DNA of 59,701 nt, the filler included, from Jimgerdemannia flammicorona (taxonomy: Eukaryota), in NCBI GenBank assembly GCA_003990765.1. It is 3 parts of 3 records of this genome, joined end to end, with 100 filler letters (N's around TTAATTAATTAA, not from the genome) between each part and the next. Parts side by side here need not be neighbours in the genome. Positions count along the whole stretch, not along the records: positions 1 to 19,835 come from RBNJ01001837.1; 2 more parts are not named here. The stretch is one strand, 5' to 3'. Position numbers and translations under genes: made by a program. Shown here in pieces: positions 1 to 42,841 of this stretch. Every line of letters begins with the position of its first letter. The first letter of the stretch is position 1. The notes under the pieces are model-generated. The model saw only the letters and a list, made by a program, of their open reading frames with translations. It ran no database searches and was not told the DNA's origin.

Positions 1-349
1 ACCGAGACAACTCCTTGTTGGCGACGGCAAAAGGAAGAAGGCGCCGCACCAAAACGGGTACACCCCAGACGCAGCCGAAGGCACCAGAATCCGCGAAAAA
101 GTGGAGGAAGCACCGATCCGACACCGATAAAGGGACAACTCAACACCATTGCCCTCCTCCCACCATGCCCTTGCAGGCACAGCAAACCAACCCGAGGTAG
201 AGGGGGTGATAATAGGGGAAAGGGGACTCGGAAGGTTGCCTACCAAACCTTGTAACCGGTAAGGTAGCGGAGAAAGGAGCTGGGCACTAGTCATTACCAT
301 AGGTCATCAACAATCCAAGGAAGTCACTACAGAGATTGGGCAATATGTT

Positions 350-1752
350 TTGTCTTAAAGTCTTGAACTAGATCTTGAGAGTTCTTGAGATTGACCAGTA
401 GTTTCCAGGTAGTATCATATTCAGAATAACTCATCCACTTGACTAAGTATTCAGGGCAGTGGTAGCAGATTCATTTATCAAGGATTTTCTCAGCTTCATA
501 CTTAATATGGTCTTCAATAATAATAGAGGCAGAAGGCTTAGGAATTTGACCAGGGTAGGGTGGTGACTAGTTCTAGGTCTTGAGATATGACACATGAAAG
601 ACTGGATATACTCTTATGGTTTCAGGTAGCTTAAGATGGTAGGAGGAAGCAGAGACTTATTCAGTGATCTCGAAAGGTCCAATATACTTGAGTTGGAACT
701 TGTTTGAAAGGCAGTTAACTTGAGATTGTATCTTGAGTTTCTCAGTAGACAGTAGGACTTGATCTCCAATAGTATAAGTAACATCATGGCATTTCTTGTC
801 AGCATACTTGACTTGATGCTGTTGAGCCTTCTGAAGATTCATGGTAGTAATCTTAAGTAGTTCATCTATTTTGTCTGTAAGGTTCTTGGCAGTTAGGACT
901 TGTATTTAACTGGTTTTCTTGAAAGAGAATAGACTTGCAGGGATCTTAGGATCTTGGTCATAGAGTAATTGGAAAGGGGAAAGGCCAGTAGATGATTGGA
1001 CAGCATTGTTGTATGCAAACTCTATATAAGTCAGATAGATGTCTCAATCATCTTACTTGTAAGAAACATAGTTTCTAAGTATTTGTTCTAGAGTTCTATT
1101 CATGTGCTCAGTTTGTCCATCAGTTTGTGAGTGAAAGGCAGTAGACATAGCCAATTGGGTTCCCAAAGTCTTGAAGAGGGTTTGCCAGAAGTGGCTGGTG
1201 AACTTGGGGTCATGATCACTAACAATTACTTATAGTAGGCCATAGTGATAGATGATAGACTTGAAGAAGATTCTTGCAATCTCAGGTGTAGTGGTATTGG
1301 TAGTGGTTAGTTCAGCAATCATAGTCTTGGTTAGGTGGTCAATGAATATGATAATAGCATTAGTACCAGATTGAGTTCATAGTAGTTGAGTTATAAAGTC
1401 CATAGTGACTTGCTTGAACTTCTTAGTAGAAATTGGCAGTGGTTGTAGCAAATCAGCAGATGCTTGGTTGGTAGACTTGTTATGCTGACATAGATTACAG
1501 CTGGCAACATAGTTCTTGATTTCCTTGACCATGTTTGGCCAATAGTAGCAGCATTGGATATTCTTGACAGTCTTCCCAATTCCCAGGTAACCAGTAAGAG
1601 AGAAGTCATAGTGTTTTTGCAAAACCTTATAGTATAGATTCATGTTTTCAGATAGGTAGACTTGGTCTTGATGATAGATCAGGTTGTTCTTAACAGTATA
1701 TATATCCTTGAGTTCATTTGAGAAAACTCTAGTGGCAACTATATCTTCTTTA
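350..1752 (-). pseudogene. Degenerate Ty3/Gypsy pol 3' half (integrase + chromodomain), oldest layer of the nest
   Basis: Minus-strand fragments give the integrase zinc region (YYWPNMVKEIKNYVASCNLCQHNK), VTMDFI, KYIGPFEI and a chromodomain remnant (PEYLVKW..YSEYDTT) near 400-460; many stops. Ends at the hAT TSD. Confidence 0.9.
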
Positions 1753-1767
1753 TAGTGCTCCAAACGA

Positions 1768-2090
1768 GTCAATCCGAATCAAATCTGGATTTGATTCATC
1801 ACATGATGGTTTGATCCAAATCTCAAATCTGAAGCCATCCAAATCAACTCAGATTAATCCAAATCACTCCATCTGAATCGCTCTATCTGAATCACCCATC
1901 CAAACCACCCCAATCTGAATTACTCAATCCAAATTACTCAATCCGAATTACTCAATCTGAATCACTCAATCTGAATCACTCAATCCAAATCCTCCAATTT
2001 GAATCCTCCAATTTGAATCCTCTAATTTGAATTCTTCAATCTGAATCCTCATCTGAATCCTTCAACTGAATCCTCCAATCCAAATCCTCC
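1768..2090 (+). repeat. hAT left subterminal repeats (ATCCGAATC-derived, 13-14 bp units)
   Basis: Tandem ACTCAATCCGAATC / CCTCCAATTTGAAT variants with most CpG changed to TpG or CpA; colinear with the unmutated copy at 19462-19835. Confidence 0.9.
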
Positions 2091-2199
2091 ACATGACTTA
2101 TATGCCAGACATGTCTATAATACAATATATATACACACATATACAATACATACACATACATACACATGCATATGCAAACATGCAAATATACATATTGAC

Positions 2200-4803
2200 A
2201 GATCAGTCTTCAACAGTTCATAGTACTGATGATGCTTCAAGTCAAATATCCCTGATAGTTCCACACCTTTCATACAATCCTTGCTCCGAAATCTGGCAAC
2301 ATTATGCTAAGATAGGAGATGATGTTGTTTGTAATTATTGTAGGTAAAAAATTAAGATGCACCTATTGACACTGTTTGTTTGTTTTGATACACATATGAT
2401 ATTGTTTCATCTACTCCCATAAACTGCACCAACCAGAAGTTCAAAATGCTTGGGGGTATGACTTTGAACATAAATCAATATATAAAAGATAAGCACTCTA
2501 ACAAAATCAAAAAGAACACAGAGACAAATAAAATTAACATCCAAGCTATGGTGAGTATATTTATCCAATTGCCCAACCATTTCTGTACCAACAATGCTAT
2601 TTAATCAAAAATATTTGGCCATACTCTTCAGCAGAATTTCGAAATTGGCTCATTTACTAGATTGTGTACACAGATCAGCCATTCACAACTATCAAGAGTG
2701 ATCAATTGCATAGCATCTTTGGTCTCCTCAAGCATGATTTATATTTGCCAAGTACTGATACTATTCACAAAGATATCCTGGAGGCCTATAGGAAGGAGCA
2801 TAATAATCTCTGTCAGATACTTCAGATAAAATAAGAGCAGTATTATAACCTTTACAAGCTAAATTATATAAAAGAGCTCACCAATTTAACTTCACATTCA
2901 ATAAGCAGAATTTGGCAGGCAAAATTTCATTTACGATTGATACATGGATATCCCCCAATGCAATTTCATTTCTGGACATTATTGGTCATTAGATTGATCT
3001 CAATTAGTAGCTTAAATCTCTCATCCTTGACTTTGTCAAACTTGCTGACTCTCATTCTGGAGACAATATTGCAGATACTTTTATTAGTTATATCTGGGAG
3101 CTTGAGATCACCACCAAGGTAAAAAAGAGGGCTTGCTGTCAGATTGGCATTTTGAGAGAGGTCCTAAACTAAACCAGATTTTATTGGTTATTTATTTTCA
3201 CATAAATTCACCAACTAAATATTTCAAGTACAGATTTTGGCCATTATGATGGACAATACTACAAACAACTCAATATTTTTCAAAGTTTTAGCAGCCAGCC
3301 TCAAATAGGAAAACATAGCCTTTAGTACAGAAAGCTGTTGTGTATGATGCCAGGCCCATATACTGAACCTCACTGTTCAGGACTATCTTATGTACATAGA
3401 CAAAATATCTGAGAGAGAAGGGGCCCTGAGTATAATTTCCAAGCTGTACAATCTGGTTGTGTCAGTCCAATCATCCCCACAATGATGAGACAAATTTGCT
3501 ATATAGTGTAAGGCAATCAGTTTAGCCCTGAAAGAGCTTATACATATTAGACATCTGTATATATTGGAACTCAACATTTATAATGATCTAGTATGCACTA
3601 GAGTTTGCTATAGTATGTATTCTTTTTTTTCTTCAGTTGGCTGAAGCAACTTATTTTGGATAATTGAAGATTTATTTTAAAAAAAACAAAAAACAAAAAA
3701 AGCCAATAGATTCAACAGTAGCTATCAATAAGGAAATACAGGCCAAGGCTCTAGATGAAAGCAAGTGGGACATACTTAGGAATATTGTCAGAGTTTTGGA
3801 AGTAAGTGGTGATTGCTCTAGCTCTACACTTGTTTTGTCAGCCTCCACACTCGTTTTGTCTACCTCTGTACAATGCAACACCTCATCACATATAACTGCC
3901 AGTGTTTTGATGATTGTATGAAGGATATAGTCAAACAAACGACCCTGACAATAAGCTCAGCAATATCAGTATACAATCTTCTGATTGACTGGTTAGAGGA
4001 TAAGCTTGAGGATAGGCTGGAGAGTTGCAGTAATTTACAGTTGAGCCTGGATCAGAGAGATACCATAGAGGTTGCTCTTAGCAAGCTCAGAAAGTACTAC
4101 TCTCAAACAGATACTGCTATATACTCAATTAGTACAGATATATTTATATTGGTATGTAGCTGTTGCCTCTTCCAAAACAGAGAAATCTCTACAAAAACTC
4201 ACTCTCTTCTCTCTTTTGAATAGTGCTGGACCCATACTTAAAGCTACAATATTATAAAGATCAGGGCTAAGAGCAGCACTTCATTGAGAGAACCAAGCAG
4301 GCTGTAATCAAAGTATATCAGAAAAACTATGCACCACTGCAAGGTTCTGGCCAAAGTCTGGATGAATATGCTGAGGGATCCCTCCTGTCCCACATTTACT
4401 TCAGCAGAAAGAGGAAGAGAGAGCCATCAGTAGAAGAGCTGCCATCAATAGATGAACTTACCATTTACCTCACCAGCAACCATATAATCCTGCTGGAGAG
4501 TGTGGAGGTACTCAACTGGTGGAAGGTGGGTTGTCAGATGGGTGTTGGACCAATTTAACCCACTAATCTAACCACTGCTCTATCCACCACTCTATCCACT
4601 GGAGCATGCAGCTGCATCAAACAGACTTCCCCAGCCTGTGTGGCATGGCTTAGAACTATCTGGCAATTCCTGTCTCTAGTGCTCCTGTCAAGCAGGTGTT
4701 CTCAGATAGGGTGGACCTCATTGCTCCAAAGAGGTGTGTACTGAATACTGAGACAATCTAGGCATATATGTGTCTGAAGTCTTGGTGGAGCTCGGGCTAC
4801 TAA
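2200..4803 (+). pseudogene. Intron-containing hAT transposase pseudogene
   Basis: BED finger start (SEIWQHY..VVCNYCR), ISFTIDTW, IMMDNTTN, CQAHILNL, WNST, and the dimerisation domain (VLNWWK, NYLAIPVSSAPVKQVFS, MCLKSWW); stop TAA at 4801-4803; internal stops. 5' end approximate. Confidence 0.9.
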
Positions 4804-4954
4804 AATTCAGCAGGTCCTGGAAGTTTGTGAATAAGTTGGTTGGCCTTGTGGAATATTTAATATCTTTCAAAAATAATAAAAAGGTAAAAAACCCTGAGGA
4901 CTCAGCTTGGAGTTTGCAGCCCAAGTGGGCAGTAGTCAGCAGGGTTGGTGGTGG

Positions 4955-5590
4955 TGACAGAGGGAGTGCACAATGTTTGCAACCCTTCACCAGCAGCAAG
5001 GAGCAGCCCCAAGCTGTCAGTGTCTGGGTCAGTGGGTGGATCAGTGGAGAGAACATGTAAAATTTGTGGCCCTCTGCTGGCAGCAAGGGGTAGCCCCAAG
5101 CCACAAGTATCCCAGTCAGGGGAGTTGGTAGAGGGAGTGTGCAAAACTTGTGGCCCTCCACCAGTAGTGAGGGGCAGCCCTAAGCTGTCAGCACCCAGGT
5201 CAGTAGGCAGGGTCAGTTAGTAGGGTTGGTGGGTATGGGGTTAGTAGAGAGAGCATACAAAATTTGCAGCCCTCCACCAGCAGCAAGGGGCAGCCCCAAG
5301 CTGCAAGTATCCAGGACAGGCAGGGTAGGTAGAGAGAGTATGCAAAATTTGTGGCCCTCTACCAGCAGCAAGGGGCAGACCCAAGCTGTCAGTGCCTGGG
5401 TCAGTAGGCGGAGTTGGTCAGCAGAGTTGGTGGGTACAAGGTCAGTGAGGGAGCATGCAAAATTTGCAGCCCTCTGCTGGCAGCAAGGGGCAGCCCCAAG
5501 CCACAAGTGTCCAGGATGGGCAGGGCAGGCAGAGGGAATATACAAAATTTGCAGCCCTCTGCCAGCAGTATAGGAGCAGCCCTAAGCTGC
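4955..5590. repeat. Array of 7 GC-rich double-hairpin units with alternating spacers
   Basis: Core GCAAAATTTG(CA/TG)GCCCTC..CAGCAAGGGGCAGCCCCAAGC near 4970, 5057, 5141, 5257, 5342, 5457 and 5542; spacing about 85/115 bp. Confidence 0.85.
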
Positions 5591-5845
5591 CAAGGAGTCC
5601 AGGGTGGAGAGTGCTTCTGATGGTCAAAGGGCATTTCTGGTGGTCGAAGTCTACCACAGATTCAGGTCCTATTGCCAGTTTGGGTCCTATGGGTCAAGGG
5701 GCTGGTAGGGCCCTGTATAATAGCTAAGCTAGTGCTACAGAAGAGGTGCTCAGCCCAACCCCCCACATAAGACTGCCCAACTCATACAAAATGACTGCCT
5801 AACCCTCATGATAGACTGTCTATCCCTCGCAAAAGATTGCCTAAC

Positions 5846-7873
5846 TGTAAGCATACAACCTCCAAGCCACCAAAATTACACGTGACCTCCAAACAAATCT
5901 GGAAATCACCTGCTTGATCATGAAGCTGAGTCAAACCAAAGTCACAGCACACAAAGCTGAGTCAATACGAAGTCATAGAATACAAGGTTTACACAAAAAG
6001 AATCTTACCAATCAGGACCAAATGCATATATACCGAGCACTGAGACACATCGAATCAGAGAACCAAAAAAAATAACAACCACAACTTCCAAATACACAAA
6101 CATGACCACTGAGATCTATAACCATATCCACGCTGACATTTGGAATGCCATTGTCAACTGAGCCATACTCTCTCTGCCCCTCATGAATATCCATAGCCTG
6201 GCACCCCTCTACTTTGTGGAAGCCTGATGGAATGCCCTGAACATGCTTAGCGAGGCCCACCGAATTGGACAAATCTCAAGCTACTACCAGATTGGCTGTC
6301 TCCTGGAAGACATGGTTGAACACCACCATGATACAGACATTACCCAGATGTCTCAACACCAGAAGCTCATCGCCCACAAACATTGAGAACTTTTCTACGA
6401 GTACAGTACCATTATTCCCCGCCTCCGAGTTACTACCAGCAAAATGGTTGCTACCCTGTCCTATGGCCAAATCGATGATATGATACAAAAACTCAATCAC
6501 AAGTACCTCAAGTATGTCAAAACTATAGACAGAACCTTCCCACACCCCAATGATCAAATCTTGCAAATGCCCCAAGTTGGATATGCCATGAAGGACATCT
6601 ATGATATAATCCACTTCAATGAAGATGAAGCAGAAGACAATGATCCCTCTGATGCCGACATAACCTCTAGCCAAGGATCTCTGCCAACCCTGATCACTCT
6701 GCCAACCTTGCCAATGAACTTACAACAGTTCATAACTACATACAAGACTTATTGGGACAATGACCACTGGCACGAACACCAACCTGCATTCACCCCCGAT
6801 TACTTCAACTACAATGAAGAGACCGGAGAACACAACCTGTACCTCCAGACAACCCTCGAGATTGAACCAACCACTCCACCACCTGAGTACAAGCGACATG
6901 AACCACAGCCGCCAGCTTACTACAATCCTGCAACTCATAGTGCTGTAACCTATAGAAGGTACGCAGACAGCGAATCCGATGAAAGTGAAGACAATACACC
7001 CATCCTTCGCCCACCAACACCTTATCCAGTCTACGAGACAGACAATGCTATCCTGTGGGATGGAGATGAAGTCCCAATGTATTACTACCTCAGCGAATAA
7101 GGAGAAGTAATCCGCGAACCACTATTCCTAGATGACTACTTCATCAGAGATGATGCAATTGATAGTGATATCATCGAAGACTACCCAGACAGTGCCTAAA
7201 CCATAAATAGCCTAGCAGTTATAGTATAGTTAGATTAGTCTTGTATGACATGACTGTGAACTGACTCAGCAGTCAGATGATCTCTTGACATGTCAGATCA
7301 CTATTGTACTACATGACTGCATTCCAACTCAGCAAGGCACTAAGTGCTATATCTATATTTAGCATAGTCCAGATAGCCCCTCACTAGTATAAATACCCCC
7401 TCCCCCAGACCTCAGAATCTCAGACTCAAACACACGAGAACATTTCTGAATACTTCCCACAATATCCCTTTATACAAATACTCCTAGTATAGCAATATCA
7501 TGAATAGCAAATAAACCTATTCTATAACCCACAAACCACTCTTAAGTAAATCTGCTCCCTGTTAGGTCCCACTCCTAACCCCGTCACAAATTTCCTAATT
7601 GGGTATTGCCTACAGTGATATGCCAATTCAACTAAGCTGGTCTTAGTTTCTTAAACTTTCTGAAATATGAAAAATCCTGAACATCTAGAACTAGTCCAAA
7701 AAAAGGACTTTGGTTGAGATATTAACCCAATCTTGAAATCAATAAGCATAGAGGATGTACTCCATACAAAATTGATCTTGACCATAAGAAAACAGTCTTC
7801 CAGAACATCCAGAATATCCAGAAAACCTTTCCAGAATTACGTAATAGTTACCCTAAAAAGTAACCCTCTTACA
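5846..7873 (+). repeat. 5' LTR (2028 bp)
   Basis: TGTAAG...CTTACA termini; direct repeat of 14396-16423 at a constant offset of 8550; TATAAAT at 7388 and AATAAA at 7510. Confidence 0.97.
6102..7199 (+). pseudogene. LTR (U3)-embedded ORF, ~365 aa, unknown function (5' LTR copy)
   Basis: ATG 6102 to TAA 7197-7199 in one frame with four stops (6159, 6225, 6384, 7098); three of them are sense codons (CAA, CGA, CAA) in the 3' LTR copy. Confidence 0.8.
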
Positions 7874-7876
7874 ACT

Positions 7877-7888
7877 TGGTAGCAGCGG
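7877..7888 (+). promoter_or_regulatory. Primer-binding site, probably initiator tRNA-Met
   Basis: TGGTAGCAGCGG 3 nt after the 5' LTR; TGGTAGC is complementary to the GCUACCA 3' end of animal and fungal initiator tRNA-Met. Confidence 0.8.
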
Positions 7889-9900
7889 TTTACAATCTAA
7901 TTCTGCTTCAAGACGCTTCCTCACCCCGCTACAAACTCCTCTGCGAATTCCTACAAGTTGGTATAAAGTCCAACCTCTGAGCTGGAATTTATCCTGAACC
8001 ATCTGACAATCTGGAGAGAATTGAACCTGACGTACAAGGACAATTTGACCTCCACACCTGCAACAAGTGGAACAAACTTTATTCCAAGAAAGAAATACTC
8101 CAGTTAAATCAGCAAATAGGTGAAACCCTATTCACCGAACTCCTTGCACTACACCCAGAAAGTCAAGACGAAGAAGGTCTTATTGAAGTCTTCTTTACTC
8201 TTCTCAACAAGAGTTTTGTCAGTTCCACAAATCTGAGCGACCTAGGACAACCAGCAGCAGTCTTTCTAGCCTTAGTTCCTCATGAAGCCCAAGCCTCTGT
8301 AGCCAAGTGGCTCAACTCTACTGACTTTCACTGTACCAGGACCAAGACTGCCTTATACTACCAATTCCAGAACAGTAAGGCCCACCATATCCTTAAAGAA
8401 GAAGCAAGAGAAACCCTTCATCAACTACCTGACCCTGAACCTGAAGCAGGCCCTGCTACAGCCCTATCTGAATCTAAAACCAATACCAAACCTGAACTTG
8501 ACTTTGAATTAAGTCTATCTGAAATCAGATATATAACTGATTCTGTCTACTTTGACACTGAGCAAACCCAAATACATGGGGACCAAACTGAAGAAGAGGA
8601 GGAGTATCTCACTGAATTCGATCCTGGGTACATCACTGAAGGAGATGCACTCCCATCAGGACAGAATACACCTACACAGCAACAAATAGTTATCTATCAA
8701 GCCCTCACTCCAGATCCACAACTACTACTCCAGCAACTTACACAGACCCAAAGAACCCCATCACACTCTGCACCAGTACCTCAAGTAGTATCAGTAACAC
8801 CACTACCAGCAGTCCAGCCGCCTCCAGTAAACAACATGGTGAACCAACACATTCTTGATCTCACAGCCCAAGTAGCTATAATGGCAGCAACTATCACTGC
8901 CTTAGCTGAACAGACCTGACCTACCAAAAATCTGAGCCTACCTACCTTCAATGGTACTGCACAAGAAGTCCAAAGCTTCATTAGTGTAGTTGACACCAAC
9001 TTCAAAGCCAATCAATGGACTAATGAGCAAGTCGCTGACCGCGTTCTGACAAACAATCAAGACCACACTCTGGAACAACTCTTTGCTACTACTATAGTCT
9101 ATGTCTGCCGAGTTGTTACATTCTTCCAAGGACCTGCTGAAGAATAGTGGCGAACCCTTCCTGAAAAACCCCTCACATGGGATACCTGACCTACAGTAGT
9201 TACCCAGAATGCAGCAAACAATGCCCCAGGATATGGAGCCCATCCTGTAGCCCCTGGACTCAAACAACTTATGATTGCTCAATACCGCAGCGAAACCATA
9301 ATTGCTGAATCTCGAGTAAAACTCTGCAACCTCAAATTCGATGTACATAGCAAAGAAGAATTCAAAACCTTCTGTATCAAACTCGAGTTACTCCTGAACA
9401 CTATTGGCCTAGGATATATCGCCAATGATGAAGCACGAAATAGTACAAGAGCAGACCATTTATTCGATGCCCTGCCTGAATGGCTTACTAGAAAAATCCG
9501 AGAACAAGGCTGCCCAGTTGGTTGTGATCACCAACAATGGTGCCTGGCAAGAATCAAGACCATGGTCAAGCAAATCCTAACAGCTGGACCAATTCTGCCC
9601 CAAAGACAATTTAACAATAAGGAAAGGACTTGGACCAAGAAAGAAGAACCCAAGCATGAAGCATCCCGAGCTCCCTCCACATTCACCTCTTGGACACCCA
9701 GAAATCCTGAACCCACCCAGCCCAGTACCTTTAAGAAACTTACTGAAGGCAAAAGAAATGAACTTTGAAGAAGTGGAGCATACTTCTATTGCTGAAAGAC
9801 AGGACACATGGCCAGTGCCTGCCCTAACCGAAAACTCCAAACAGCAACCTGAGCAACTGTTACCACTCTGCATCACCTCAACAACCTGATCACCAGAATA

Positions 9901-10308
9901 CTAGACTTTGTCAAGTTAAGACAAACTGCTAAGGCCCCAACCAAAGGAAGTCAAAGAGCAGCCAGATATGACCTGTATGCAGCCAAAGAAGCTTCAGTTT
10001 CTAATCGAGAAGTCAAACAAGTCTATACAGGAATCAGTATCCAAATCCCTGAAGGACATGTTGGAAGAATATGCTATCACAGCAGCCTAGCATTGAAAGG
10101 ACTCTCAGTAGAAGGAGGAGTCATTGATGAGGATTACACAGGCGAAATTATTGTCCTCATCTGAAACCACAGTTGGACACCCTTCAAGATCCCCATTGAT
10201 TTCTGCATTGTCCAGATCCTATTCGAAAAAATCGAGTCAACTCTGATAGTCAAGGAAGTCCCTGAACTACTGCCCACCATCTGAGGATCCAAAGGATTTG
10301 GCTCATCA
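9901..10308 (+). other. Trimeric dUTPase domain within gag-pol
   Basis: The five motifs occur in order: AARYDL, ICYHSSLA, GVIDEDYTGEI, IVQIL, (R)GSKGFGSS; several deviations from consensus are C>T or G>A changes. Confidence 0.9.
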
Positions 10309-13300
10309 AACAAAGCCCTAGCCCAACCTACTATGAGCAAAGAAGAACAATTCTATAAGAAAATCGAAGATGGATATGTACCAAGTGGCCAATGCCCTCA
10401 TGGTATTGGAATGTACTTTTCCCAAATGATTGATAATTGCTTCTCTTGTGTCAACGAACTGGCTCAAAGAAGAACCAATAGAAGGAAAGCTCCTATAATG
10501 GAAATTACCACCATTGGATCAGACAAACTACTCACCCTTAAGGCTTTTACCAATGGAGCACCTGTCAAGATTATGATAGACAGTGGTGCCTCAGGCAACT
10601 TCATCAATGAAGAAACAGCCAACAGACTCAAGGTCTTCACCTCTCCAGTACAGAAAACTCAAGTAGTTGCTACAGCTGATGGAACCTCATATGTTATTAG
10701 CAAAGAAGTCCGCAATCTACCCTTCCGAATTGGCGACTACCGAGTACATATTACCCTCCAAATCGTACCACTTCCTGACAATGAAATCATCCTTGGAGCT
10801 CTATGGTTAAAACAAGAGAACCCTATGATTGATTGGGTAAACCATTCCCTGACCATCAAGAAAGGACGCCACAACTTCAAACTACAAGGCGAAAAGGACC
10901 CACTCAACTCTAGGGACCCTGGACCAAAGATCACTCATATCAACAAGCTACAACTCAAGAAATTGGCCAAGTAATACCCTCTCTTTGCTATCTCCATCCG
11001 ACCATCCAAAGGAGAACCCGAGAACTCTGAAGAAGATTTTTCCAAAGTTGACAGCTATGTCAGACCACTACTCCAGAAATTCCGAGACATATTTCCAAAG
11101 AAGCTACCAAAAGGCCTACCTCCCAAACGAGCAGTAGACCATGCAATCAAGACTATTCCAGATGCCAAACCAGCCTTCAAGTCAATCTACCACATGTCTC
11201 TGAGAGAAATTGATGCACTCAAGAAGGAAATTGACAAACTCCTAGAACAAGGATTCATCAGATCCAGTGTATCACCCTATGATACACCAGTCCTCTTTGT
11301 TGTCAAAAAAGGAGGAGACCTGTGAATGTGCATTGACTACCGCAATCTCAATGAACAGACTATCAAGAACTGTTGCCCACTACCGAGGATTGATGAAATA
11401 TTCGATAGGCTCACCAACCCATAATTCATGAGCTCTTTTGACCTGTGAAATGGTTACTGGCAAATTGCCATGAAAGAAGACGACATCTACAAGATAGCTT
11501 TCCGAACTCACTATGGATACTTCGAGTTCCTGATTATGCCCTTTGGCTTAACTAATGCTCCAGCAACCTTCCAGACACTGATGAATACTATTCTGCATCT
11601 ATACCTAGACAAATTTATTATTATCTACATTGACGACATCCTAGTCTTCAGCAAAACCCTAGAGGAACATCTCGAACACCTTGAACTAGTATTACTGAAA
11701 CTCCGAGAAAACCAACTCTTTGCAAAACTCAGTAAGTGCGAATTTCTCCTGAAAGAAATCCAATTCCTTAGACACATTGTCACTTTGAATGGAATCAAAG
11801 TAGACTCCAGCAAAATCTCTGCAATCAAAGGTTGGCCCAGACTGAAGAAGCTGAAAGACCTCTAGTCATTCTTGGGACTAGCAAACTATTACAGGCGATT
11901 TGTTGCCAACTTTGCTAAAATCGCTACCACTCTCACCCAAATGACCAAGTATAGCAAGAAACAAGAACAACCCTGGACCATGAAACAAGAGAAGGACTTC
12001 AACAATCTTATAACTTGGGGACCTGAACAAGATACCACCTTTCAAGCACTGAAAGATGCTCTGATAACCACATCAGTACTTCAAGCAGCAAACCCTGCCC
12101 TACCATATGAAGTCACTACTGATGCCTCTGACCTAGCTCTTGGAGCAGTGCTCATGCAAGAAGGGCACCCTGTGGCCTATCACTCCCACAAGTTCAACAA
12201 TGCCGAAATCAACTATGCAACTCACGAGAAGGAAATACTAGCCATCGTAGACACTCTGATAAAATGGCGACCATATCTAGAAGGAGCACACTTCACTGTA
12301 TTGACTGACCACAAGTCATTAGTTAACATCAAGACATAGGCTACCCTTTCTTGAAAGTAAGCCAGATGGATGAAAGTCCTCACCAACTTTGACTATGAAA
12401 TCCAGTACCGCCCTGGCAAGGAAAATATTATTGCCGATGCAATCTCCAGATCACCAATTGAAGAGGTTATCCAAACTCTGACCTTGGTTACCAACTCCAT
12501 CATGGAACAAATTATCACAGCATGTGCAGATGATAAGGAAGCTCAAGTACTCTGAGAAATCCTGAACAATGATGATGCTGACAAGCATACCCGGTACAGT
12601 CAATACCAACTCAAGGACAATGCTATTTACTACAAGGACAGATTGTATGTTCCAAACAACCGAGACCTCCAAAGGACTATCCTATTCGAATGTCATGATA
12701 CCCCTACAGCTGGACATTTAGGATTTGATAAATGTTACGAAGTTATCTCCCGAAACTTCTATTGGCCCCGCATGGCAGATCAGCTCAAAACCTACATCAC
12801 TTCCTGTGATGCCTGCCAACGAAACAAGTCCTCAACACTAGCAAAACCCAGCTTACTTCACCCTATCTCAGTACCATCTGCAAATTGGGAACAAATCTTT
12901 ATAGACTTCATTGTACAACTACTCTGAACCAAGAATGGGAAAGATGCAATTGTTGTCTTTGTAGACTATCTCAGCAAACAAGCCCACTTTGTGCCTACTA
13001 TCACTACTGCAACAGCACCAGAAATAGCCACACTCTTATTTGATAACATCTTCCGCTATCATGGTCTTCCCAAGATCATTGTTAGTGACTGAGATCCGAA
13101 ATTCACCAGCCACTTTTGGAAAGCCCTCTATGGCCACCTTGGAACAAAACTTGCACTATCCACAGCCTTTCACCCAGAAACTGATGGACAAACTGAAAGA
13201 ATGAACTGAACTCTGAAACAAATGCTAAGGAACTATGTTTCCTACAGACAAGATGACTGGCATGAACACCTCACCGCAGTTGAGTTTGTCTACAATAATA

Positions 13301-14381
13301 GCAAGCAAGCCTCTCTTGGAATGATCTCATTCTTCACCAACACTGGACAAAATCCAAACACCCCTTTGACACTTATCCGAACTACTGAAGAACCCTCCAC
13401 AGTCGAAGCCATTGAAGAATTCTTACTCCGAATGCGCAATTTAAGCCAGATTGCCATTGAGAATTTATCGCGAGCTCAAGAACAACAATCACAGTATGTT
13501 AACCAACATCGCTGAGAAGAAACCTTTGATATTGGAGAAAAAGTTCTACTAGACATCAGAGGATACTGAGTTGACAACCTCAAGCACAGACCATCTACAA
13601 AGCTGAACAGCAAGTTCATTGGACCATTTGAAGTTATTGCACAAGTCTCTCCAACCTCCTACAAACTGGCACTATCAGACACCATTAAGATTCACCCAGT
13701 CTTTAATGTTCAATGTCTCAAGTGATACAATGACAATGATGATGAGTTATTTCCAAATCAGACCATGAAACCACCTGCACCTATCATCATTAATGACCAA
13801 GAAGAGTATAAAGTTAAACAAATCCTCAACAAATGTGGCAACAAGAGCCACCCTGAGTACCTTGTCAAATGGAAAGGTTATCCAATCCATGATGCAACCT
13901 GGGAACCCAAGACCAACCTTCAGAATGCTACCGATCTAGTTCAGGAATATGATTCCTTGAACAACTAGAACCAAATACTCCACACCTATCAGTACACACT
14001 ATATATTATCCTCCCGAACACTATAATTATTGCAAACCAAATCAAGAACTCAGCAAAACAAGACAAGAATACTGACCCTCTGGAAAAATAGCAAAACTGA
14101 AAGCAAGCCTATTCTCCCCATATCACTGGTGGGAAATGAGGCATAGACATTTAAGAAGATTTCTTAGAGGAAATTCTCCAGCAGTGAATGACATCAGAAT
14201 CACTTCCGGTGCATGGCATTGAACACACGACCCTTTAACGTGTGAATCCAATGCATTAGGCAACTGTACTATAAGCATACTACTTTCTGAGAAAAATGGA
14301 CTTCACCGAACTTTTAACCTCCCAAATGGTGTAACAATACTAGAACAAAATTAGAAGGCCCCAATGAGGACGTCGAAAGCT

Positions 14382-14394
14382 AAGAAGGGGAGAG
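14382..14394 (+). promoter_or_regulatory. Polypurine tract
   Basis: AAGAAGGGGAGAG immediately before the 3' LTR. Confidence 0.9.
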
Positions 14395-14395
14395 T

Positions 14396-16423
14396 TGTAA
14401 GTGCACAACCTCCAAGCCACTGAAATTACACATGACCTCTGAATAAATCTGGAAATCACCTGCTTGATCATAAAGCTGAGTCAAACCGAAGTCACAGCGC
14501 ACAAAGCTGAGTCAATACGAAGTCACAGAACACAAGATTTACACAAATAGAATCTTACCAATTAGGACCAAATGCATATATACTGAGCACTGAGATGTAT
14601 CGAATCAGAGAACCAAAATAAACAATAACCACAACTTCCAAATACACAAACATGACCACTGAGATCTACAACTGTATCCGTGCTGACATTTGGAATGCCA
14701 TTGTTAACCAAGCCATACCCCCTCTGCCCCTTATAAATATCCATAGCCTGGCACCCCTCTACTTCATGGAAGCCTGATGGAATGCCCTGAACATGCTTAG
14801 CAAGGCCCACCGAATTGGACAAATCTCAAGCTACTACCAGATTGACCGCCTTCTGGAAGACATGGTTGAACACCACCATGATACAGACATTACCCAGATG
14901 TCTCAACACCAGAAGCTCATCACCCGCAAACATCGAGAACTTTTCTATGAGTACAGTACTATTATTTCCTGCCTCCAAGTTACTACCAGCAAAATGGTTG
15001 CTACCCTGTCCTATGGCCAAATCGATGACATGATATAAGAACTTAATTACAAGTATCTCGAGTACGTCAAAACTACAGACAGAACCTTCCTACACCCCAA
15101 TGATCAAATCCTGCAAATGCCCCAAGTTGGATACACCATGAAGGACATCTACGATATAATCCACTTTGATGAAGATGAAGCAGAAGACAATGATCCCTCC
15201 GATGCCAACATGACCTCTAGCCAAGGATCTCTGCCAACCCTGATCACTCTGCCAACCTTGCCAATGAACTTACAACAGTTCATAACTACATATGAGACTT
15301 ATTGGGACAATGACTACTAGCATGAACACCAATCTGCATTTACTCCTGATTACTTCAACTACAATGAAGAGATCGGAGAACATAACCTGTACCTCCAGAC
15401 AACCCTCGAGATTGAACCAACTACTCCACCACCTGAGTACGAGTGATATGAACTACAGCCGCCAGCTTACTACAATCCTACAACTCATAGTGCTATAACC
15501 TATAGAAGGTACATAGACAGTGAATCCGATGAAAGCAAAGACAATATACCCATCCTTCGCCCACCAACACCTTATCTAGCCTACGAGACAGATGATGCTA
15601 TCCTATGAGATAGAGATGAAGTCCCAATATATTACTACCTCAGCGAACAAGGAGAAGTAATCCGCGAACCACTATTCCTAGACAACTACTTCATCAGAGA
15701 TGATGCAATTGATGGTGATGTCATCGAAGACTACCCAGACAGTGTCTAAACCATAAATAGCCTAGCAGTCATAGTATAGTTAGATTAGTCTTGTATGATG
15801 TAATTGTGAACTGACTCAGCAGTCAGACAATCTCTTGACATGTTAGATTACTATTATACTATGTGACTGCATTCCGACTCAGCAAGGCACTAAGTGCTAT
15901 ATCCATATTTAGCATAGTCCAGATAGCCCCTCACTAGTATAAATACCCCCTCTCCCAGACCTCAGAATCTCAGACTCAAATACATGAGAACATTCCTGAA
16001 TACTTCCCACAATATCCCTTCACACAAATACTCCTAGTATAGCAATATCATAAATAGCAAATAAACCTATTCTATAACCCACAAACCACTCTTAAGTAAA
16101 TCCGCTCCCTGTTAGGTCCCACTCCTAACCACATCATGAATTTCCTAATTGGGTATTGCCTGCAGCAATACGCCAATTCAACTAAGCTAGTCTTAGTTTC
16201 TTAAACTTCCTGAAATACGGAAAATCCTGAACATCTAGAACTAGTCCAAAAAAAGGACTTTGGTTGAGACATCAACCCGATCTTGAAATCAATAAGCATA
16301 AAGGACGTACTCCATATGAAATTGATCTTGACCATAAGAAAACAGTCTTTCAGAACATCCAGAATATCCAGAAAACCTTTCCAGAATTACATAACGGTTA
16401 CTCTAAAAAGTAACCCTCTTATA
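14396..16423 (+). repeat. 3' LTR (2028 bp)
   Basis: Copy of 5846-7873; terminal CA mutated to TA; followed by TSD CTAAC. Confidence 0.97.
14652..15749 (+). pseudogene. LTR-embedded ORF, 3' LTR copy
   Basis: Same frame and length as 6102-7199; private stops at 15036, 15318, 15444 and 15606 are sense codons in the 5' LTR; only TGA 14775 is shared. Confidence 0.8.
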
Positions 16424-16864
16424 CTAACCCTTATAAAAACTGCTCCACCCACTGGTCCCAGGCCTTGATGAGTCTATCATCCATTATGAGTATGATGACT
16501 ATTGTGTCCAAGCTCTCCTCAAAGATGATGGTGCTATAGTAGTTGTGTAGTTAGAAGAGAACAGCTATGTTGGCTGCAAACAGGACCCCAAAACCATAGG
16601 TGAGGTCATACCAGACTCTGCCACTATCCTCCCAGGTTGGGCCCTTCCTTTCTGGGACATAAAATATTACCAGAGTGACATTGTTGTCTGTGTGTATGGG
16701 TAGAGAAAGGTTGTGTCTGACATATCCTGATGTGATATGAGCATATGGTTGGGTGAACCCTTGGTCCAGGACCTCATACTGCCAGGCTGTGCTGATGAAT
16801 GCCTATCCTTGGTCTAGCCCCAGGAGCCCTGGCTTGGAAATCTGTCAAAATAGATGGCAACCAG

Positions 16865-18470
16865 TTAGTCCTTTTTGTATGTAGGAGGGCAGAAACCCCC
16901 TGAGCTGCAGAAACCCCCTAGGCCACAGAAACCCCCTGGGCTACAGCACTCCAAAAAGGTGGAGCTCCTTATCTCATATGGCATACTAAATTGTGCCAAG
17001 AATGTACATACAGCTGTGCTGAGATCACCACCAAGCTGGCCTGCTGTATGCTCTACCAATCTACTCAAAGAACTCTAGATCATAGCCACCATCACTGTAC
17101 AGACCATGTCATACTCACATACAGTTTGCTTTTCAATGATACTTCTAAAGTTCCAGTAGAGGTACAGAATCTTGTGCATCTTTGGATTTGTATCAAAAAG
17201 AGTATATTGGCGAAGAGTGTGATTTATCTGAAGAGGAGTAAAAAAAAAGAGAGACAAGTGTGGGGGATTTCAGAACTCTGGAACCCACCCTTCACCAGTG
17301 TTACAGTATACCCAATTCCCATCCAAACCCCCCCTCCTTGCTTTTTTTATCCCCTCTTTCCTACTATCCAGTATTTGACACAATCCTTGCAAATCTTATT
17401 GATGTGGTGGCAAAGCTTATCACTATAGAGGTTTCTTACCACCATTGCAACCACCTCTCTATGTTCATTAATAAAGATATAGTTCTTTTCATCATTGGTT
17501 ACTCCTACTGGCCAATGGACCTCTTGGTTGAGAACAATTGGCTCTGATTTAAATATAGACCCCCAAGCCTTGATAACAATACTAGTACTGCTTATGCTGA
17601 ACATCTTGCCCTTGAATTTCTCTATTTGATCAGACACTAGATGTGGTTGAACTTGGGTAACTTTGAACTCTCCTTTCCAATGGAACTGAGCCCTGATATG
17701 AGGGATCGAGATAAGTGTATGGATGGGTTGTGTGCAGATGGGTTGCATGCAGATGAGTTGTATGTGGGTGAGTTGCATACAGGTGAGTTGTGTGTAGGTG
17801 TAGGTATTTTTTAGGGAGAGACCACATAAAAAATGAAATTAAATAAAATATGGAGATGGGTATTTCAGAAAAAGAACATGAGTGAGTGAGTGAGTGAGCT
17901 ACATACTGATGAGTTGTACACTGACAAGTTGCATAAGTTGCATAAGATTGCTCACGAAGGCTTACTTCTGTTCATTTTGAGACCTCCACTATGTGATGCA
18001 TTGACTCAACAGCTCAGTCACCAAAGGCATGCCCTGCAACATCCTCCAACCTTTCTTCATCTTGATCAGATGTTGTGAATAAAGTCGGCAGATCTCACTG
18101 TAGAGCTGTAGACCCTAAGAAGAGCACGAGGTGAATTAGGTCATGCTGGGGGAATTTAAACAAGTAAAAAGTAGCAGCAGAAAAGAGCAACCTACATCTA
18201 CTATCAGCTGCTTCAAAAAGGCTACTGTATACATAGCTGTGAGGTCTGTGAATTCCAAGGTCCAAAGGGCCACCATGAGTTGTTACCAGAATTTACCCTT
18301 ATCTCCACCATTGCCATCACCATTGCCATCACCATCGCCATTGCCATCACCACTGCTGTCACTCCTTTGGCTTCAATGAGCAGCTTGTATGCTGCCTATA
18401 TGAGAAAGAATCTAACATTGTCAGCAGAGAGTGCATTTCCACCTTGAATACTCCCTCTTTTGACAATCAT
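16865..18470 (-). pseudogene. Multi-exon cargo gene of the hAT element, unknown function
   Basis: Exon-like blocks with GT/AG borders at about 18470-18200, 18144-17966, 17692-17364 (AQFHWKGEFKV...CKDCVKYWI) and 17227-16865 (INHTLRQYTLF...GGF repeats, TAA); convergent with the transposase and inside the TIRs. Boundaries approximate. Confidence 0.6.
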
Positions 18471-18674
18471 TACAGGGTGAAAAATGAGTAGACTGGACCA
18501 ATATACAAATTAAGGGCTACTGTTTTGTTTGCTCGTGATGCAGCAGGAAAGAACAAAGAAAAAGAATAAAGAAAAGAGAGGGAACAAAGAAAAGGGTGAT
18601 ATCACCAAAGTGTGGCAGGAAAAAAAAAAACAAGAGCAAAATGAACAAAAGAAAGGGTAATGTCACCAAAGATT

Positions 18675-18840
18675 TCAATCTGGATGGATCAATCCAAATG
18701 GATCATCTAGATGGATCAATCCAGATGGATCAATCTGGATCAATCTAGATCAATTTGGATCAGATCACGAGATCAATTTAAGTTGATTCGAATCTATCAC
18801 ATGATTAACCTGAATCAAATCTCATCTGGATCAACTCCAT
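18675..18840 (+). repeat. hAT right subterminal repeats
   Basis: Repeated GGATCAATC(CA/TG)GAT units next to the right TIR. Confidence 0.8.
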
Positions 18841-18863
18841 TTGTTCGGAGCACTACTTCTTTA

Positions 18864-19461
18864 TAAGCTTGCCTGATTTGGTCTAGGAATTCTGATGCCA
18901 AGGTGACTTATATAATTATGGCAAGGTCTGGGTGCCTTAATAAGGCATCTGGTACTATAAGTGTCTTGCTAGGCTTGTAGATGATTGTTGGATTGAAGGT
19001 TTGAAGCTTAAGGCTCCACTTGGCTTGTAGATGTAATAGAGTAGATTGAGTGTTGATGTACTTGAGAGATTGATGATCGGTAATGACATCAAACTCAATA
19101 CCTTTTAGATAGCATCACCAGTAGTCTAGTACATATATTATTGCTAGTAGTTCCTTCTCATGAGTGGCTAGCTTTTGTTTAGCTGGGGCCAGCTTGCAGG
19201 ACTCGAAAGTAATAGGGTGATGTCCTTTGCCATCATCTTGTGACAGGACTACTCCAATGGAAAAATTCAATACATCAGTGGTAACTGTGAATTTTAGGCC
19301 TTAATCTGCATTATATAGAACTAGAGCATGAGTCAGACAGTTTTTGAGTTCTTCAAAGACTTGTTGACAGAAGAGATCCCAGGTATAGAGTATATAGTAG
19401 TCTGAGTGTAGGGCCTTCCTCATGTAGTCAGTGGCTCAGCAATACCAGAGAAGTTTCTGAT
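18864..19461 (-). pseudogene. Continuation of the oldest Gypsy relic (RNase H region)
   Basis: Minus strand gives VTTDVLNFSIGVVLSQ, KLATHEKELLAI, FDVITDHQSL and IIYKPSK; it joins the 350-1752 fragment across the hAT TSD. Confidence 0.85.
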
Positions 19462-19835
19462 TAGTGCTCCGAACAAGTCAATTCGAATCAAATCCGGATT
19501 CGATTCGTCACATGACGGTTTGATTCGAATCTCAAATCCGAAGCCATCCGGATCAACTCGGACTTAATCCGAATCACCCCATCCGAATCGCCCCATCCGA
19601 ATCACCCATCCGAACCACCCCAATCCGAATCACTCAATCCGAATCACTCAATCCGAATCGCCCCATCCGAATCGCCCCATCCGAATCACCCATCCGAATC
19701 ACCCATCCGAACCACTCCAATCCGAACCACTCAATCCGAATCACTCAATCCGAATCACTCAATCCGAATCACTCAATCCGAATCACTCAATTCGAATCCT
19801 CCAATTCGAATTCTCCAATTCGAATCCTCCAATTC
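19462..19835 (+). mobile_element. Left end of a second, younger copy of the same hAT family (truncated by the gap)
   Basis: TAGTGCTCCGAAC TIR and subterminal repeats colinear with 1753-2050 but with CpGs intact. Confidence 0.92.
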
Positions 19836-23152: not shown

Positions 23153-24487
23153 TTCGTACGATTAATAACGTGGGGAGAAGAGGAGAAAGGGATGGAAAGA
23201 GAAGGATAACGTGAATGGATGCATTTTTTTTTTTTTAGGGTGAGGGGGAGGGGGGAGATCGTAGTGGGAAAGCAAATACATGCGCTACGTGAGAAATTGT
23301 GGTAGCAAGCTTACTCGATAGATGAGCGTTATTTCGAGTTTTATCTCTAAGACTTTGGTTATTTGACCATTCAGTTCACTTTTACTTGCCTTTGTATTTC
23401 ATTTGGTATCCTGTCATGTAAAAATAGGGTTCCACCTACCTGTGTTGCTTTTGGTTTGCGGCTAAAGTTTTAACTTCGATAGTCTAGAGCAACGATGGAA
23501 TTTTTGTGCATTATCATGGTCATGTTCCTTGTACTTTGTAATGATCAAGAAATCGTGTAAAATAAAAAACAGATCAAGTAGAATGAGAAAAAAATAATAA
23601 GTAATAAATACCCTGGGGCAAGCGTGTTTCACCCAAAAATAATACAATGATGCAAACTATGGATTTTTAATACGCTATGCTAAGTAGGGTCGATATAAAC
23701 CCCCGAGATGCGAAAAATAAACATAAAAATAAAAATAAAAATAAATAAATAAATAAGCCGGTTTATACCAGGATGTCTGAATACCAAAGTGATTCAGGCA
23801 ATCGTCGGCGTTATATATTCAGGATACGTCTTAATGCGTCATTCTAAGACATCCTCCCTTTCTATTTTCCGACGCCGCACTTAGCCTAATCAGCGTTAGT
23901 AACAGATATTTGATCGCGTTGCAAAGATAATAGTACGAAATGGAGCTTGCGTCTGTCTTTGTCGCCAAGGGCTCAAACAATAACACCAACACCGTCCCAA
24001 TGAGATGGTAGGTGGCGGGGTCCAAATTTGCCTAACGGATTTTTGTTCAAGCCAAATCGGAGATCTTCCATTGCTCCGATCGCCACGGGCCTCGCTTGGG
24101 ATATTGATTCTTTTACGGATCGGACTTGTGCTCAATAACCGTTCCCTTCAGCTTACCACGCTATCTGTGCTAGTGAAAAAAAGACGCAATCCAAAACAGG
24201 AGCATGATGCTTGAGGGCGAAGTCGAAGGATTTTAGCTCCCTTCTTCGCGCAGTCCGGATCACACCAAGCTTAGCCGTCGACGATCACATTCGACAATAT
24301 TTTGAACCCGCGCCAAAGAAATACGCCCACGGACAAGGTGCTCCGCTTCACCGACGCGCCAGTGACGTACTGGCGGTGCCAATTTCTATCTAGCGCCGTC
24401 ACGTGATATGGAATAATGGCCCAAACGCAAATGAACTATAAAGAGCGCCCTTGGGCGCCCAAGATTTGAAGAATCGAGAAGGAAAAC

Positions 24488-26230
24488 ATGGCTCAAGAAG
24501 AATACTCCGTAGAATACATCCCACCTAATTCCATAGGTGTGCACCCCAACACGGACACCGACAACCACACTCTATACAATGCCAACAGCTCGCATTTTAA
24601 CGGCGACGGCGGCGTCCACCCCCCACACAATCCCATCGGCTCGCATCCGGGCCTCGGTATTAGCAACAACCACGACGCGGCGAACCCGCATACGCACCTG
24701 CAACCTCCTCGAATGACACCGCTCCCTCACTCCAACTCCTTCCATCTGATCCCGTTGACGCCGCTCTACGAGGACAAGACTATCTCTCAGTCTGCATCGG
24801 AGTCGGAGAAGCTCGGAAAGCGATGGAGGTCCGGCTCCGGCTCCGGCAGCGGCTCCGGTAACGGCTCTGGCTCTTCCGTGTCGCACTCTTCCGACTCTAG
24901 TTCGCATCACTCCAGCTCGAGCCACTCGGGAATCCAGGAGAACCTGGAGGAGGCGTGGGGCGAATTTGTGCACCCGGCAGGGGTGAAGCCCAAGCACAAG
25001 AGGATCGTTACTTGGCTCGGCAAGGTCGGATTCACCACCAAGGGTATCGTGTACGGCCTCATCGGCGGCATGACATGCGCGTCTGCGAATAGGCTCAATT
25101 TGACGGGGACTGCGACCGATAATGAATCGCCTCAGGTAAGCGTGGTGCTTTGGGCTATCGTGTAAAGTGGCTCCGTGTAGAGATTAATCCTGGCTTATTG
25201 GTTTTGTTATTCATGCATATTCACAGGGAGTTTTCATATTCATCGGTGGCATTCCGATCGGAACGCCTTTGCTCGTAATCATGTTCATCGGTGTACTCTT
25301 CTATGCCGTATGGCGATTGTGAGTTTTACTAATCGCCTTGTAAATAGTCATTTCTTTTGCGGTAATCTATACTTACCAACCGTCCATCCTCTTTTATCTA
25401 ACAGCTGGGAGGCCATCACTGGCCAGGGTGCTGACGCCCAATTCTCCGCCAAGAAGAACTTCTTCCGCTACCGCCTTTCTCCCTTCGTCAGCGGCTGCGT
25501 CTACACGGCCTATCTCTATTACATTATCAAATTAATCCCTATGGCGAGCCAAAGCCGCTCAGAAGTCGGCAGTCCGGGCTGCTTCCCGTCTTGCTGGCGA
25601 GACTCTGGTTTAGGTCGTGCGGGACTAGTCTTATTCGGCATAGCCTTCTCCATTGCGACGGTGACGCAGCTAATCAACACGCTGACGGTGGGGTGGCACC
25701 GTGACCTACGCGTTAGGCACTCGCACCCGATCATTAAGTACGGCATCTACACGCTAGGCCACGCCGGGTTCCTTGCGCGTGCGGGAGTGTTTCTGTTCGT
25801 AGCGGTGCTCATGTTCCACGCGCTGGCGGTACCCGTCGACTCGACTCATTCTACCGTCGCCAACGCGCTCAACTTTCTACTGCCCACGACCGCCGGGAAG
25901 GTATTAATGTTCATTCTCGGGATCGGGTTGATTTTCTTTGGCTTGTTCGCCATCCTGAATTCCGCGTACAAGTACTTCCCAACGCCGCCGCCGAGCAGGG
26001 AGCAAGATAGGAGTAGGGAAGGGGAGGAGGAAGAGGCGAGGAAACCGGGAATGTGGAGAAAGGTGACAAAGTGGGCCGGGTATACGGATCAGCCAAAGTC
26101 GCCGTTCGAGATAGAAGAGAACGAAAAGGTTGAAAGGGAAAGGAGTGACAAAGTAGAAAATGGACATAAAGCGGATGGGGGATATTTCAATTTTCGATCG
26201 CGTGGGGATAACGAGAAAAGAGGTGGGTGA
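24488..26230 (+). CDS. DUF1206-like multi-pass membrane protein with a His/Ser-rich N-terminus, 3 exons
   Basis: Exons 24488-25135, 25227-25318 and 25405-26230 splice in frame; repeated motifs WLGKVGFTTKGIVYGLIG and LGHAGFLARAGVFLFVA resemble DUF1206 repeats. Confidence 0.8.
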
Positions 26231-27229
26231 GGAATGGGTAAGAAGTAAACCTCCAAGAAGAATTGTTTGGCAGCGTGATGTACATACTTTACCAACTTTC
26301 TCAGACCTGACTCGAATACCAAATAATCTTAGCCATCATACATGGCATATGTTTGTTTATACTTATCTGGCAGCCGCACTCTTCCTTATTTTTTGCTACA
26401 CCATTTCTCCAATTATTTCGCCTTGAGGTTTGGTAAATAAAAGTTACGTTAATATATTTTTAACGAGCAGTCAAAAGTTGTTGAATGGTAAGCTCGAGAA
26501 AAGAACTACGAAAAAGGCCACTTCGTAAAGCTTAGACGTCGTGACTTACGACACTGCAAATCCGGTGACAGTATTGTGCTGTGCTCGATGGGGATATTGA
26601 AGATATTCGAGGGTACAGTACAATAACGTCACTGCCATAGTCTCTAAAGGTTTACAACTAGCCTCCGTCCCTGGGTTCCAAAGCTAGCTTCGTGAAATCC
26701 AAAAAGTCTGGCCACGTGGCTTTCACATGGTAATAGCGCAACGATACCGACGCCGCTTGAGCAGTATTCGCCTCGATGCAAACCAAGTTGACGTAGACCG
26801 ATGAAGATTTTGAATGCATGGCATTTGCTTTTGTGATGGTTTAGAAATAGTTTAAAGCGAGAAGCAAAGCTCAGATTGCCGAACATTTATTAGTAACATC
26901 GCCATAACGTTAAAACTTGTTGGCGTAGTTTAATTTTGACATAGACATGATCGTGGACAATGCATACAGTGACCGATAGCATAAACATATGGGACATACA
27001 GCATAGATATGAACTATGCATATAAGCCGGGGTTCGGGAAGAGATAAATAATCGACTATATATGCATGTAAGCGAGTTTCATGAGTGATGTTATCAAATA
27101 ATTGGATTCGAATATGCTGGAGCATAAGCTCAGCTCAATGAATGAATAACACAATTATGTATCAGGGGGAGAAGGTATATAATGTGTATTGTATGTCAAC
27201 TCGAGTATTGAAACACAGCTGGTTTCCTA

Positions 27230-42838: not shown

Positions 42839-42841
<3 letters not shown>

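Follow-up and report, generated by a model that had tools for sequence, protein, structure and literature searches.

Why would a fungal Ty3/Gypsy retrotransposon carry a dUTPase between its nucleocapsid (NC) and its protease (PR), and did this domain ever matter to the element? The question is raised by a locus of Jimgerdemannia flammicorona (assembly GCA_003990765.1), a fungus of the Endogonales, in a stretch of 59,701 nucleotides, hereafter the window, composed of parts of three records joined by filler letters, where positions 1 to 19,835 come from RBNJ01001837.1. A complete long terminal repeat (LTR) retrotransposon, namely a chromovirus, occupies window positions 5846-16423, and a sequence-only reading had placed all five dUTPase motifs between its zinc knuckle and its DSG protease in a single gag-pol frame. 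This Ty3/Gypsy chromovirus is present in high copy number, and its active ancestors encoded a single-frame polyprotein running from Gag through dUTPase, PR, reverse transcriptase (RT), RNase H (RH) and integrase (IN) to a chromodomain. As for its role, the domain probably acted as an enzyme, packaged together with Gag, and sheltered reverse transcription from dUTP.

In the translation of window positions 8839-11100, with stops read as X, residues 364-490 match the Pfam dUTPase profile (E 4.4e-27; 94.8 bits for a cut-off of 22), or E 1.2e-28 for the domain alone, covering profile positions 3-128 of 129 at 94.8-99.9 bits, and residues 562-677 of the same translation match aspartyl protease models. 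The order of knuckle, dUTPase and DSG protease is thus borne out by the Pfam positions and the unshifted frame. The knuckle, for which no Pfam match was obtained in the window copy, reads Y-x2-C-x4-H-x4-C (45 of 55 siblings have Cys at the first position) and lies only about 35 residues upstream of the Pfam dUTPase start. All five dUTPase motifs can be recognised from their positions; in the window copy, motif 3 alone is undamaged, motifs 1, 2, 4, and 5 each deviating at a column conserved in 140-148 of 152 comparison dUTPases. Between 7981 and 13965, the frame is interrupted by 23 in-frame stops (17 TGA, 3 TAG, and 3 TAA), two of them within the dUTPase, i.e., at 10162 and 10282. Because of these two stops and of the four altered motifs, the window copy cannot encode an active dUTPase, and as such it is dead; this damage counts against an enzyme from this very copy, not against the dUTPase identity of the domain.

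The dUTPase is nonetheless a fixed part of the family to which the window copy belongs, hereafter family A. A DNA search with the window region returned 2072 first-look candidates, to be taken as an order of magnitude and not as a copy number; 40 scored matches, the window itself excluded, are 93-94% identical to it, and knuckle, dUTPase, spacer, and protease follow one another in all 30 fetched loci, a sample biased by a query that contained the domain. To escape this bias, siblings were anchored on the RT (n = 29): 14 span the whole dUTPase, two span part of it, 12 stop earlier at a contig edge and one is split by a family A LTR. The dUTPase is present in all 16 siblings that reach its position, and none of the 29 has intact flanks without it. 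Neither of the two outcomes announced beforehand as fatal to the sequence-only reading, namely a dUTPase profile without a match or sibling copies without the domain, was encountered. One candidate sister family, locus L125 with 72% protein identity, was rejected, since 16% transitions with 1.7% transversions relative to the window mark it as an old copy of family A.

Profile searches yielded 8265 first-look candidates for the dUTPase domain (PF00692) and 6640 for the Gypsy integrase finger (PF17921), again as orders of magnitude and not copy numbers. A second family, B, accounts for 28 of the best 30 dUTPase loci and shows the same domain order with a short spacer, its dUTPase being 33-38% and its RT about 52% identical to those of the window. 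In an integrase-anchored sample, made of 40 of the 150 matches listed and non-random, as matches were ranked by profile score and picked for upstream room, the dUTPase precedes the protease in 32 regions (22 from a third family, C, and 10 from family B), and the remaining eight are cut short at the protease or ahead of it. The dUTPase occupies the same position in families A, B, and C, with 33-46% identity within the domain. Stop-free polyproteins with a dUTPase before the protease also exist in databases, namely P0004, P0005, P0046, P0164, P0299, and P0305. P0305 shares 92% identity with the window; P0004, an intact chromovirus polyprotein, is 41% identical in the Gag part over 222 amino acids and 60% in the integrase. 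P0305, P0046, P0004, and P0005 resemble the window element in the order of knuckle, dUTPase, and protease and in a Cys/His motif considered below, and differ from the window copy in being stop-free.

Selection was tested on 82 family copies, base-stratified (Mantel-Haenszel) and with shifted-frame controls; only transversions were counted because methylation decay does not inflate them. Non-synonymous transversions are depleted in the dUTPase (odds ratio, OR, 0.21; p 8e-5) to a similar degree as in the protease (OR 0.20) and the RT (OR 0.14), and no significant depletion was found across these copies in shifted frames or in the spacer between dUTPase and protease (OR 0.44; p 0.21). A smaller set of 59 rows, with just one shared transversion in the dUTPase, is superseded by this test. 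The dUTPase was under purifying selection comparable to that on the protease.

This result bears directly on the idea of a neutral passenger, carried along since a recent capture from a transcript of the host dUTPase gene, DUT1. Host DUT1 mRNA does get retroposed: the best Pfam dUTPase match of the genome (L031:1495-2100, - strand) corresponds to the DUT1 gene at L092 stripped of its three introns, all 13 coding differences between the two lying at CpG, with an A-run about 400 bases downstream, and this processed copy implies that host dUTPase mRNA is reverse-transcribed in this genome. The nearest database protein to L031 is P0176 of J. flammicorona, 95% identical, the next named matches being from Umbelopsis and Mucorales (about 65-78% to Mucoromycota enzymes, protist tandem forms set aside). 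In addition, a grouping of the family A dUTPase with Mucoromycota host enzymes is not rejected by the approximately unbiased (AU) test (p 0.072), which leaves room for an ancient host origin. The window dUTPase, however, is only 40% identical to host DUT1, against 95% for the L031 copy, and a 42-row dUTPase tree places families A, B, and C outside the clade of all sampled cellular enzymes (support 95/90) and outside the fungal clade (93/89). Three families as divergent within the domain as those above, yet with the dUTPase in the same place, likewise speak against a passenger, and selection as strong as on the protease largely refutes it. Judged from these sequence comparisons, recent capture from the Jimgerdemannia host is excluded, and a neutral passenger is highly improbable.

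Where the domain came from is less sharply delineated. The 42-row tree unites families A and C with P0046 and P0004, in agreement with their common spacer motif, but the support is only 80/86 and family B and P0005 are unplaced, and a 162-row tree inferred by a quick method leaves 109 of 159 forks open. Both trees comprise neither retroviral nor named viral sequences, the smaller one has long branches, and at this level of sequence comparison it shows neither a single origin nor a donor. The domain was probably captured long ago from a eukaryotic or large-virus-type source, neither recently from this host nor from a retrovirus.

Within family A, the motif residues are largely kept, namely the Asp of motif 1 (66/67 copies), the Ser of motif 2 (66/68), the catalytic Asp and the Tyr of motif 3 (65/68 and 68/68), the Gln of motif 4 (67/69), and the Phe of motif 5 (69/69), and motifs 1, 2, 3, and 5 are canonical in many copies. 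Several observations nevertheless weigh against an active enzyme or against its need. At the Arg column of motif 4, the 69 family A copies show Cys (62), Tyr (6), or Ser (1) and never Arg, and the preceding column is Phe in every one of them; Arg or Lys occupies this column in 140 of the 152 comparison enzymes, and the Arg is kept by family B (9 of 10, plus one Lys) and family C (20 of 22). As the stop-free P0305 is also without it, the loss is a family trait rather than decay. The host moreover possesses an intact DUT1, so that the need for a second dUTPase is not obvious. Finally, purifying selection within a single-frame polyprotein need not mean catalysis.

From these observations, the dUTPase fold could have lost some or all of its activity and been retained for a different task, e.g., to bring nucleocapsid fingers together as trimers or to bind another molecule, possibly in concert with the adjoining Cys/His motif. 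A title cited in PMC4531489 gives the NC-dUTPase of Mason-Pfizer monkey virus (M-PMV) a low catalytic efficiency, which would suit such a fold. All the same, motif-1 Asp, motif-2 Ser, motif-3 Asp and Tyr, and motif-5 Phe have all been kept, and motif 4 is variable in nature, its Asp/Glu being absent from 33 of the 152 enzymes and its Arg column holding Cys in three. In the close relative P0046, motif 4 is canonical, Arg included. The available part of PMC7948977 holds no statement on the function of this Arg. On balance, a weakened or non-catalytic role is the main rival reading, but appears rather unlikely.

The adjoining motif, C-x-H-x12-C-x2-C (10393-10449), lies between dUTPase and protease, with no position lost in 34 of 43 family copies. 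P0004, P0046, and P0305 have it as well; P0005 differs from the window element in having it upstream of the dUTPase, with a shorter spacing, and the spacer is matched in all 22 dUTPase-bearing family C regions. The spacer gave no Pfam match and no ESM Atlas match at or above 0.9 (best 0.83), and calling the motif a putative zinc site is a guess from the arrangement of its residues. An AlphaFold model of P0046, computed from a single sequence with no alignment, has a predicted local distance difference test score (pLDDT) of 34.

If the domain was, as we consider probable, an enzyme packaged with Gag, the protease would free it within the virus-like particle, either alone or still joined to the nucleocapsid finger. 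The freed dUTPase would trimerise and hydrolyse dUTP, the RT would incorporate less uracil into the cDNA, and such low-uracil cDNA could avoid being cut by uracil glycosylase before integration. Since there is no frameshift, one dUTPase would be produced per Gag, barring an effect of splicing or degradation. A limit on uracil incorporation, as proposed in the sequence-only reading, is a reasonable expectation, with the reservation that family A departs from the usual motif 4. While presence and selection are observed here, activity, processing, and benefit are carried over from retroviruses, where a role of dUTPase is documented (PMC4531489).

Retroviruses also provide the nearest parallel in layout. 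The order NC-dUTPase-PR had been recognised in the sequence-only reading as that of betaretroviruses, and it does match: betaretroviral dUTPase lies between NC and PR (PMC4531489), as in the NC-dUTPase of mouse mammary tumour virus (MMTV; p30) and of M-PMV (PMC4531489, PMC1224870). From this order and from an open reading frame (ORF) in the U3 (unique 3') part of the LTR, the same reading had concluded to convergence on an MMTV-like layout, which is overstated. A functional convergence, combining an NC-dUTPase fusion with a U3 factor similar to Sag, or even descent from a retrovirus, would account for the shared order, for a stretch from knuckle to dUTPase so short that an NC-dUTPase product could persist, and for a U3 ORF apparently once coding. 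However, betaretroviral NC-dUTPase is the trans-frame product of gag-pro frameshifting, over three reading frames (PMC4531489), whereas gag and dUTPase are here joined without frameshift. Scanning 9601-10700 revealed two slippery-like heptamers (10226 and 10421), inside or after the dUTPase, and none at the knuckle-dUTPase junction. To our knowledge, betaretroviruses are without a chromodomain. The enzymes are also distant: the M-PMV dUTPase (PDB 2D4L; PMC3905902) is absent from the best 60 of 85 PDB matches to the window dUTPase, thus scoring below 31.7 bits against 79.6 bits for human 2HQU, and among the PDB matches to P0046 it ranks 31st, with 60.8 bits against 125. Betaretroviruses further differ from the window element in having env, for which no ORF of at least 100 amino acids was found in the approximately 430 bases from the pol stop (13968) to the 3' LTR. 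MMTV Sag is a membrane superantigen; no membrane-spanning segment was detected in the U3 product (highest 19-residue hydropathy 1.46), and the resemblance of the U3 ORF to Sag is one of position and nothing beyond. The common NC-dUTPase-PR order is an analogy, and MMTV-like function or retroviral descent is improbable.

The U3 ORF is of interest in its own right. Across five LTR copies, one of them from L150, transversions fall at 6 of 138 synonymous against 5 of 873 non-synonymous sites, a pattern not seen in shifted frames, so that the ORF looks formerly coding, with a purifying-selection signal. Its product is 16% acidic, and its stop-free part (6387-7097) has no match in Pfam, the only resource in which relatives were sought.

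The pre-protease slot also appears as one of several that are tolerated, since Gypsy-type proteins hold the dUTPase at several positions: in 27 proteins picked from 120 listed, it stands before the protease in 2, after it in 13 and after RNase H in 3, with 9 uninformative. The Gypsy-type fragments P0310, P0317, and P0338 have it after RNase H, Copia-type polyproteins with a dUTPase also occur (P0007, P0008, P0079, and P0159), and both arrangements go beyond those of the papers compared below.

A dUTPase in a fungal Gypsy element is not new. Three elements of Postia placenta carry it in three places, PosPlaTy3-3 at the amino-terminal end of Pol, PosPlaTy3-4 at the carboxyl-terminal end, and PosPlaTy3-5 between PR and RT (Novikova et al., 2010; PMC2864245), further cases cited there being Metaviridae of Phanerochaete chrysosporium and Tmt1 of Tuber melanosporum. 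In animals, it is found between PR and RT in the rotifer elements Juno, Vesta, and TelKA (PMC5408684) and in the planarian Burro (PMC6431247). Independent captures were inferred by authors working on Gypsy elements, and the role and origin of retrotransposon dUTPase were called unclear (PMC2864245). All these elements resemble the window element in carrying the dUTPase within a Gypsy polyprotein, but PosPlaTy3-5 and the rotifer and planarian elements (PR-RT) as well as PosPlaTy3-4 (carboxyl end of Pol) differ from it in the position of the domain. The closest by description, the only basis of this comparison, is PosPlaTy3-3, a fungal Gypsy whose dUTPase appears to lie upstream of the protease, as it is listed apart from the PR-RT position, and whose host is a basidiomycete. 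A preprint on Entomophthora muscae reports dUTPase as enriched along with retroelement domains (10.1101/2023.09.13.557621), and the term dUTP does not occur in the available part of PMC3248453. No dUTPase-bearing Gypsy element from Endogonales or Mucoromycota was found in the open-licence literature, subscription papers and Repbase lying outside this search.

The window element extends dUTPase-bearing Gypsy elements to the Endogonales, and the retention of the dUTPase under selection in at least three abundant families is population-level evidence of its importance to the element. For a specialist, the architecture itself is unsurprising; what deserves following is rather how widespread the domain is across the genome, together with the Cys/His motif and the shift in motif 4. 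Tentatively, and with more doubt than confidence, this chromovirus lineage of an early-diverging fungus may possess an undescribed module, in which a dUTPase and a C-x-H-x(10-12)-C-x2-C zinc site stand beside the nucleocapsid finger and are made one-to-one with Gag, the motif 4 of family A having drifted towards an altered specificity or a structural role. On the same tentative reading, most Gypsy copies of the genome would belong to dUTPase-bearing families, and an element-borne dUTPase may have aided the expansion.

It had also been anticipated that a dUTPase acting during reverse transcription would be unable to guard inserted copies against deamination, and the copies are indeed full of C-to-T transitions at CpG and CpA. 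The two LTRs differ at 155 of 2028 positions, i.e., by 152 transitions, distributed over CpG (74), CpA (54), CpC (20), and CpT (4) contexts, and three transversions. Decay after insertion likely proceeded by cytosine methylation and deamination or by a process similar to repeat-induced point mutation (RIP). With 152 of 155 differences being transitions, LTR divergence was not used for insertion age. The CpA and CpC transitions beside those at CpG suggest that, in this member of the Endogonales, methylation extends beyond CG sites or a RIP-like process operates.

The assignment to chromoviruses relies on the LTR pair, the target-site duplication, the primer-binding site, the polypurine tract, the PR-RT-RH-IN order, and the chromodomain after the integrase, all of which are present (Table 1). 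Two host tRNA-Met(CAT) genes of the initiator type have the 3' end corresponding to the primer-binding site. In a 15-row RT tree, built with no named reference chromovirus (Tcn1, MarY1, Tf1, etc.), families A, B, and C group with P0004, P0005, P0006, and P0170 (100/99), with unresolved internal branching.

Table 1. Coordinates of the chromovirus features along the window
Feature	Position	Strand	Evidence and remarks
Target-site duplication CTAAC	5841..5845 (5') and 16424-16428 (3')		Identical five bases beyond both LTR ends
5' LTR, 2,028 bp, TG...CA	5846..7873	+	Ungapped alignment with 3' LTR; TATAAA 7388, AATAAA 7510
U3 ORF, 365 codons, 4 stops	6102..7199	+	Same frame in both LTRs; second copy 14652-15749, 5 stops
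Primer-binding site	7877..7888	+	12 nt complementary to 3' end of host initiator-type tRNA-Met
gag-pol, one reading frame, 23 in-frame stops	7981..13968	+	Gag to chromodomain without frameshift
Gag zinc knuckle, C-x2-C-x4-H-x4-C type	9781..9822	+	Tyr at first Cys, one internal stop
Trimeric-type dUTPase	9928..10308	+	Pfam PF00692 E 4.4e-27; PDB matches up to 84 bits; motif columns
C-x-H-x12-C-x2-C motif in 68-residue spacer, possible zinc site	10393..10449	+	
Aspartyl protease, DSG 10579-10587	10522..10869	+	Pfam RVP_2 E 3.6e-10, gag-asp_proteas E 4.9e-12
Reverse transcriptase core	11305..11769	+	Pfam RVT_1 E 1.4e-28
RNase H	12016..12390	+	Pfam RT_RNaseH E 4.2e-32
Integrase zinc finger and core	12658..13176	+	Pfam Integrase_H2C2 E 3.9e-21; rve E 1.5e-5, below its own cut-off
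Chromodomain	13807..13953	+	Pfam Chromo PF00385 E 1.3e-14
Polypurine tract	14382..14394	+	Sequence immediately 5' of 3' LTR
3' LTR, 2,028 bp	14396..16423	+	Ends TA (transition); second broken U3 ORF copy 14652-15749

Some further observations concern the element and its surroundings. Upstream of the capsid-like region, about 285 in-frame codons (7981-8838) contain no ATG, and their start resembles the amino-terminus of P0004 by eye. In L064, L079, and L150, a family A LTR adjoins or splits internal regions of other copies, i.e., nested insertions. Just 5' of the element, an imperfect G-rich repeat of about 82 nt occurs five times (4959-5568). On a contig other than that of the element, dispersed copies of another repeat occur in both orientations (24470-39025), with ORFs of 349-431 codons, one of which has a DUF1206 match and another a weak Zn2Cys6 match. 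A second RT ORF (41105-42067, - strand; Pfam RVT_1 E 8.6e-28), with a long A-run at 42776-42839, perhaps belongs to a non-LTR element.

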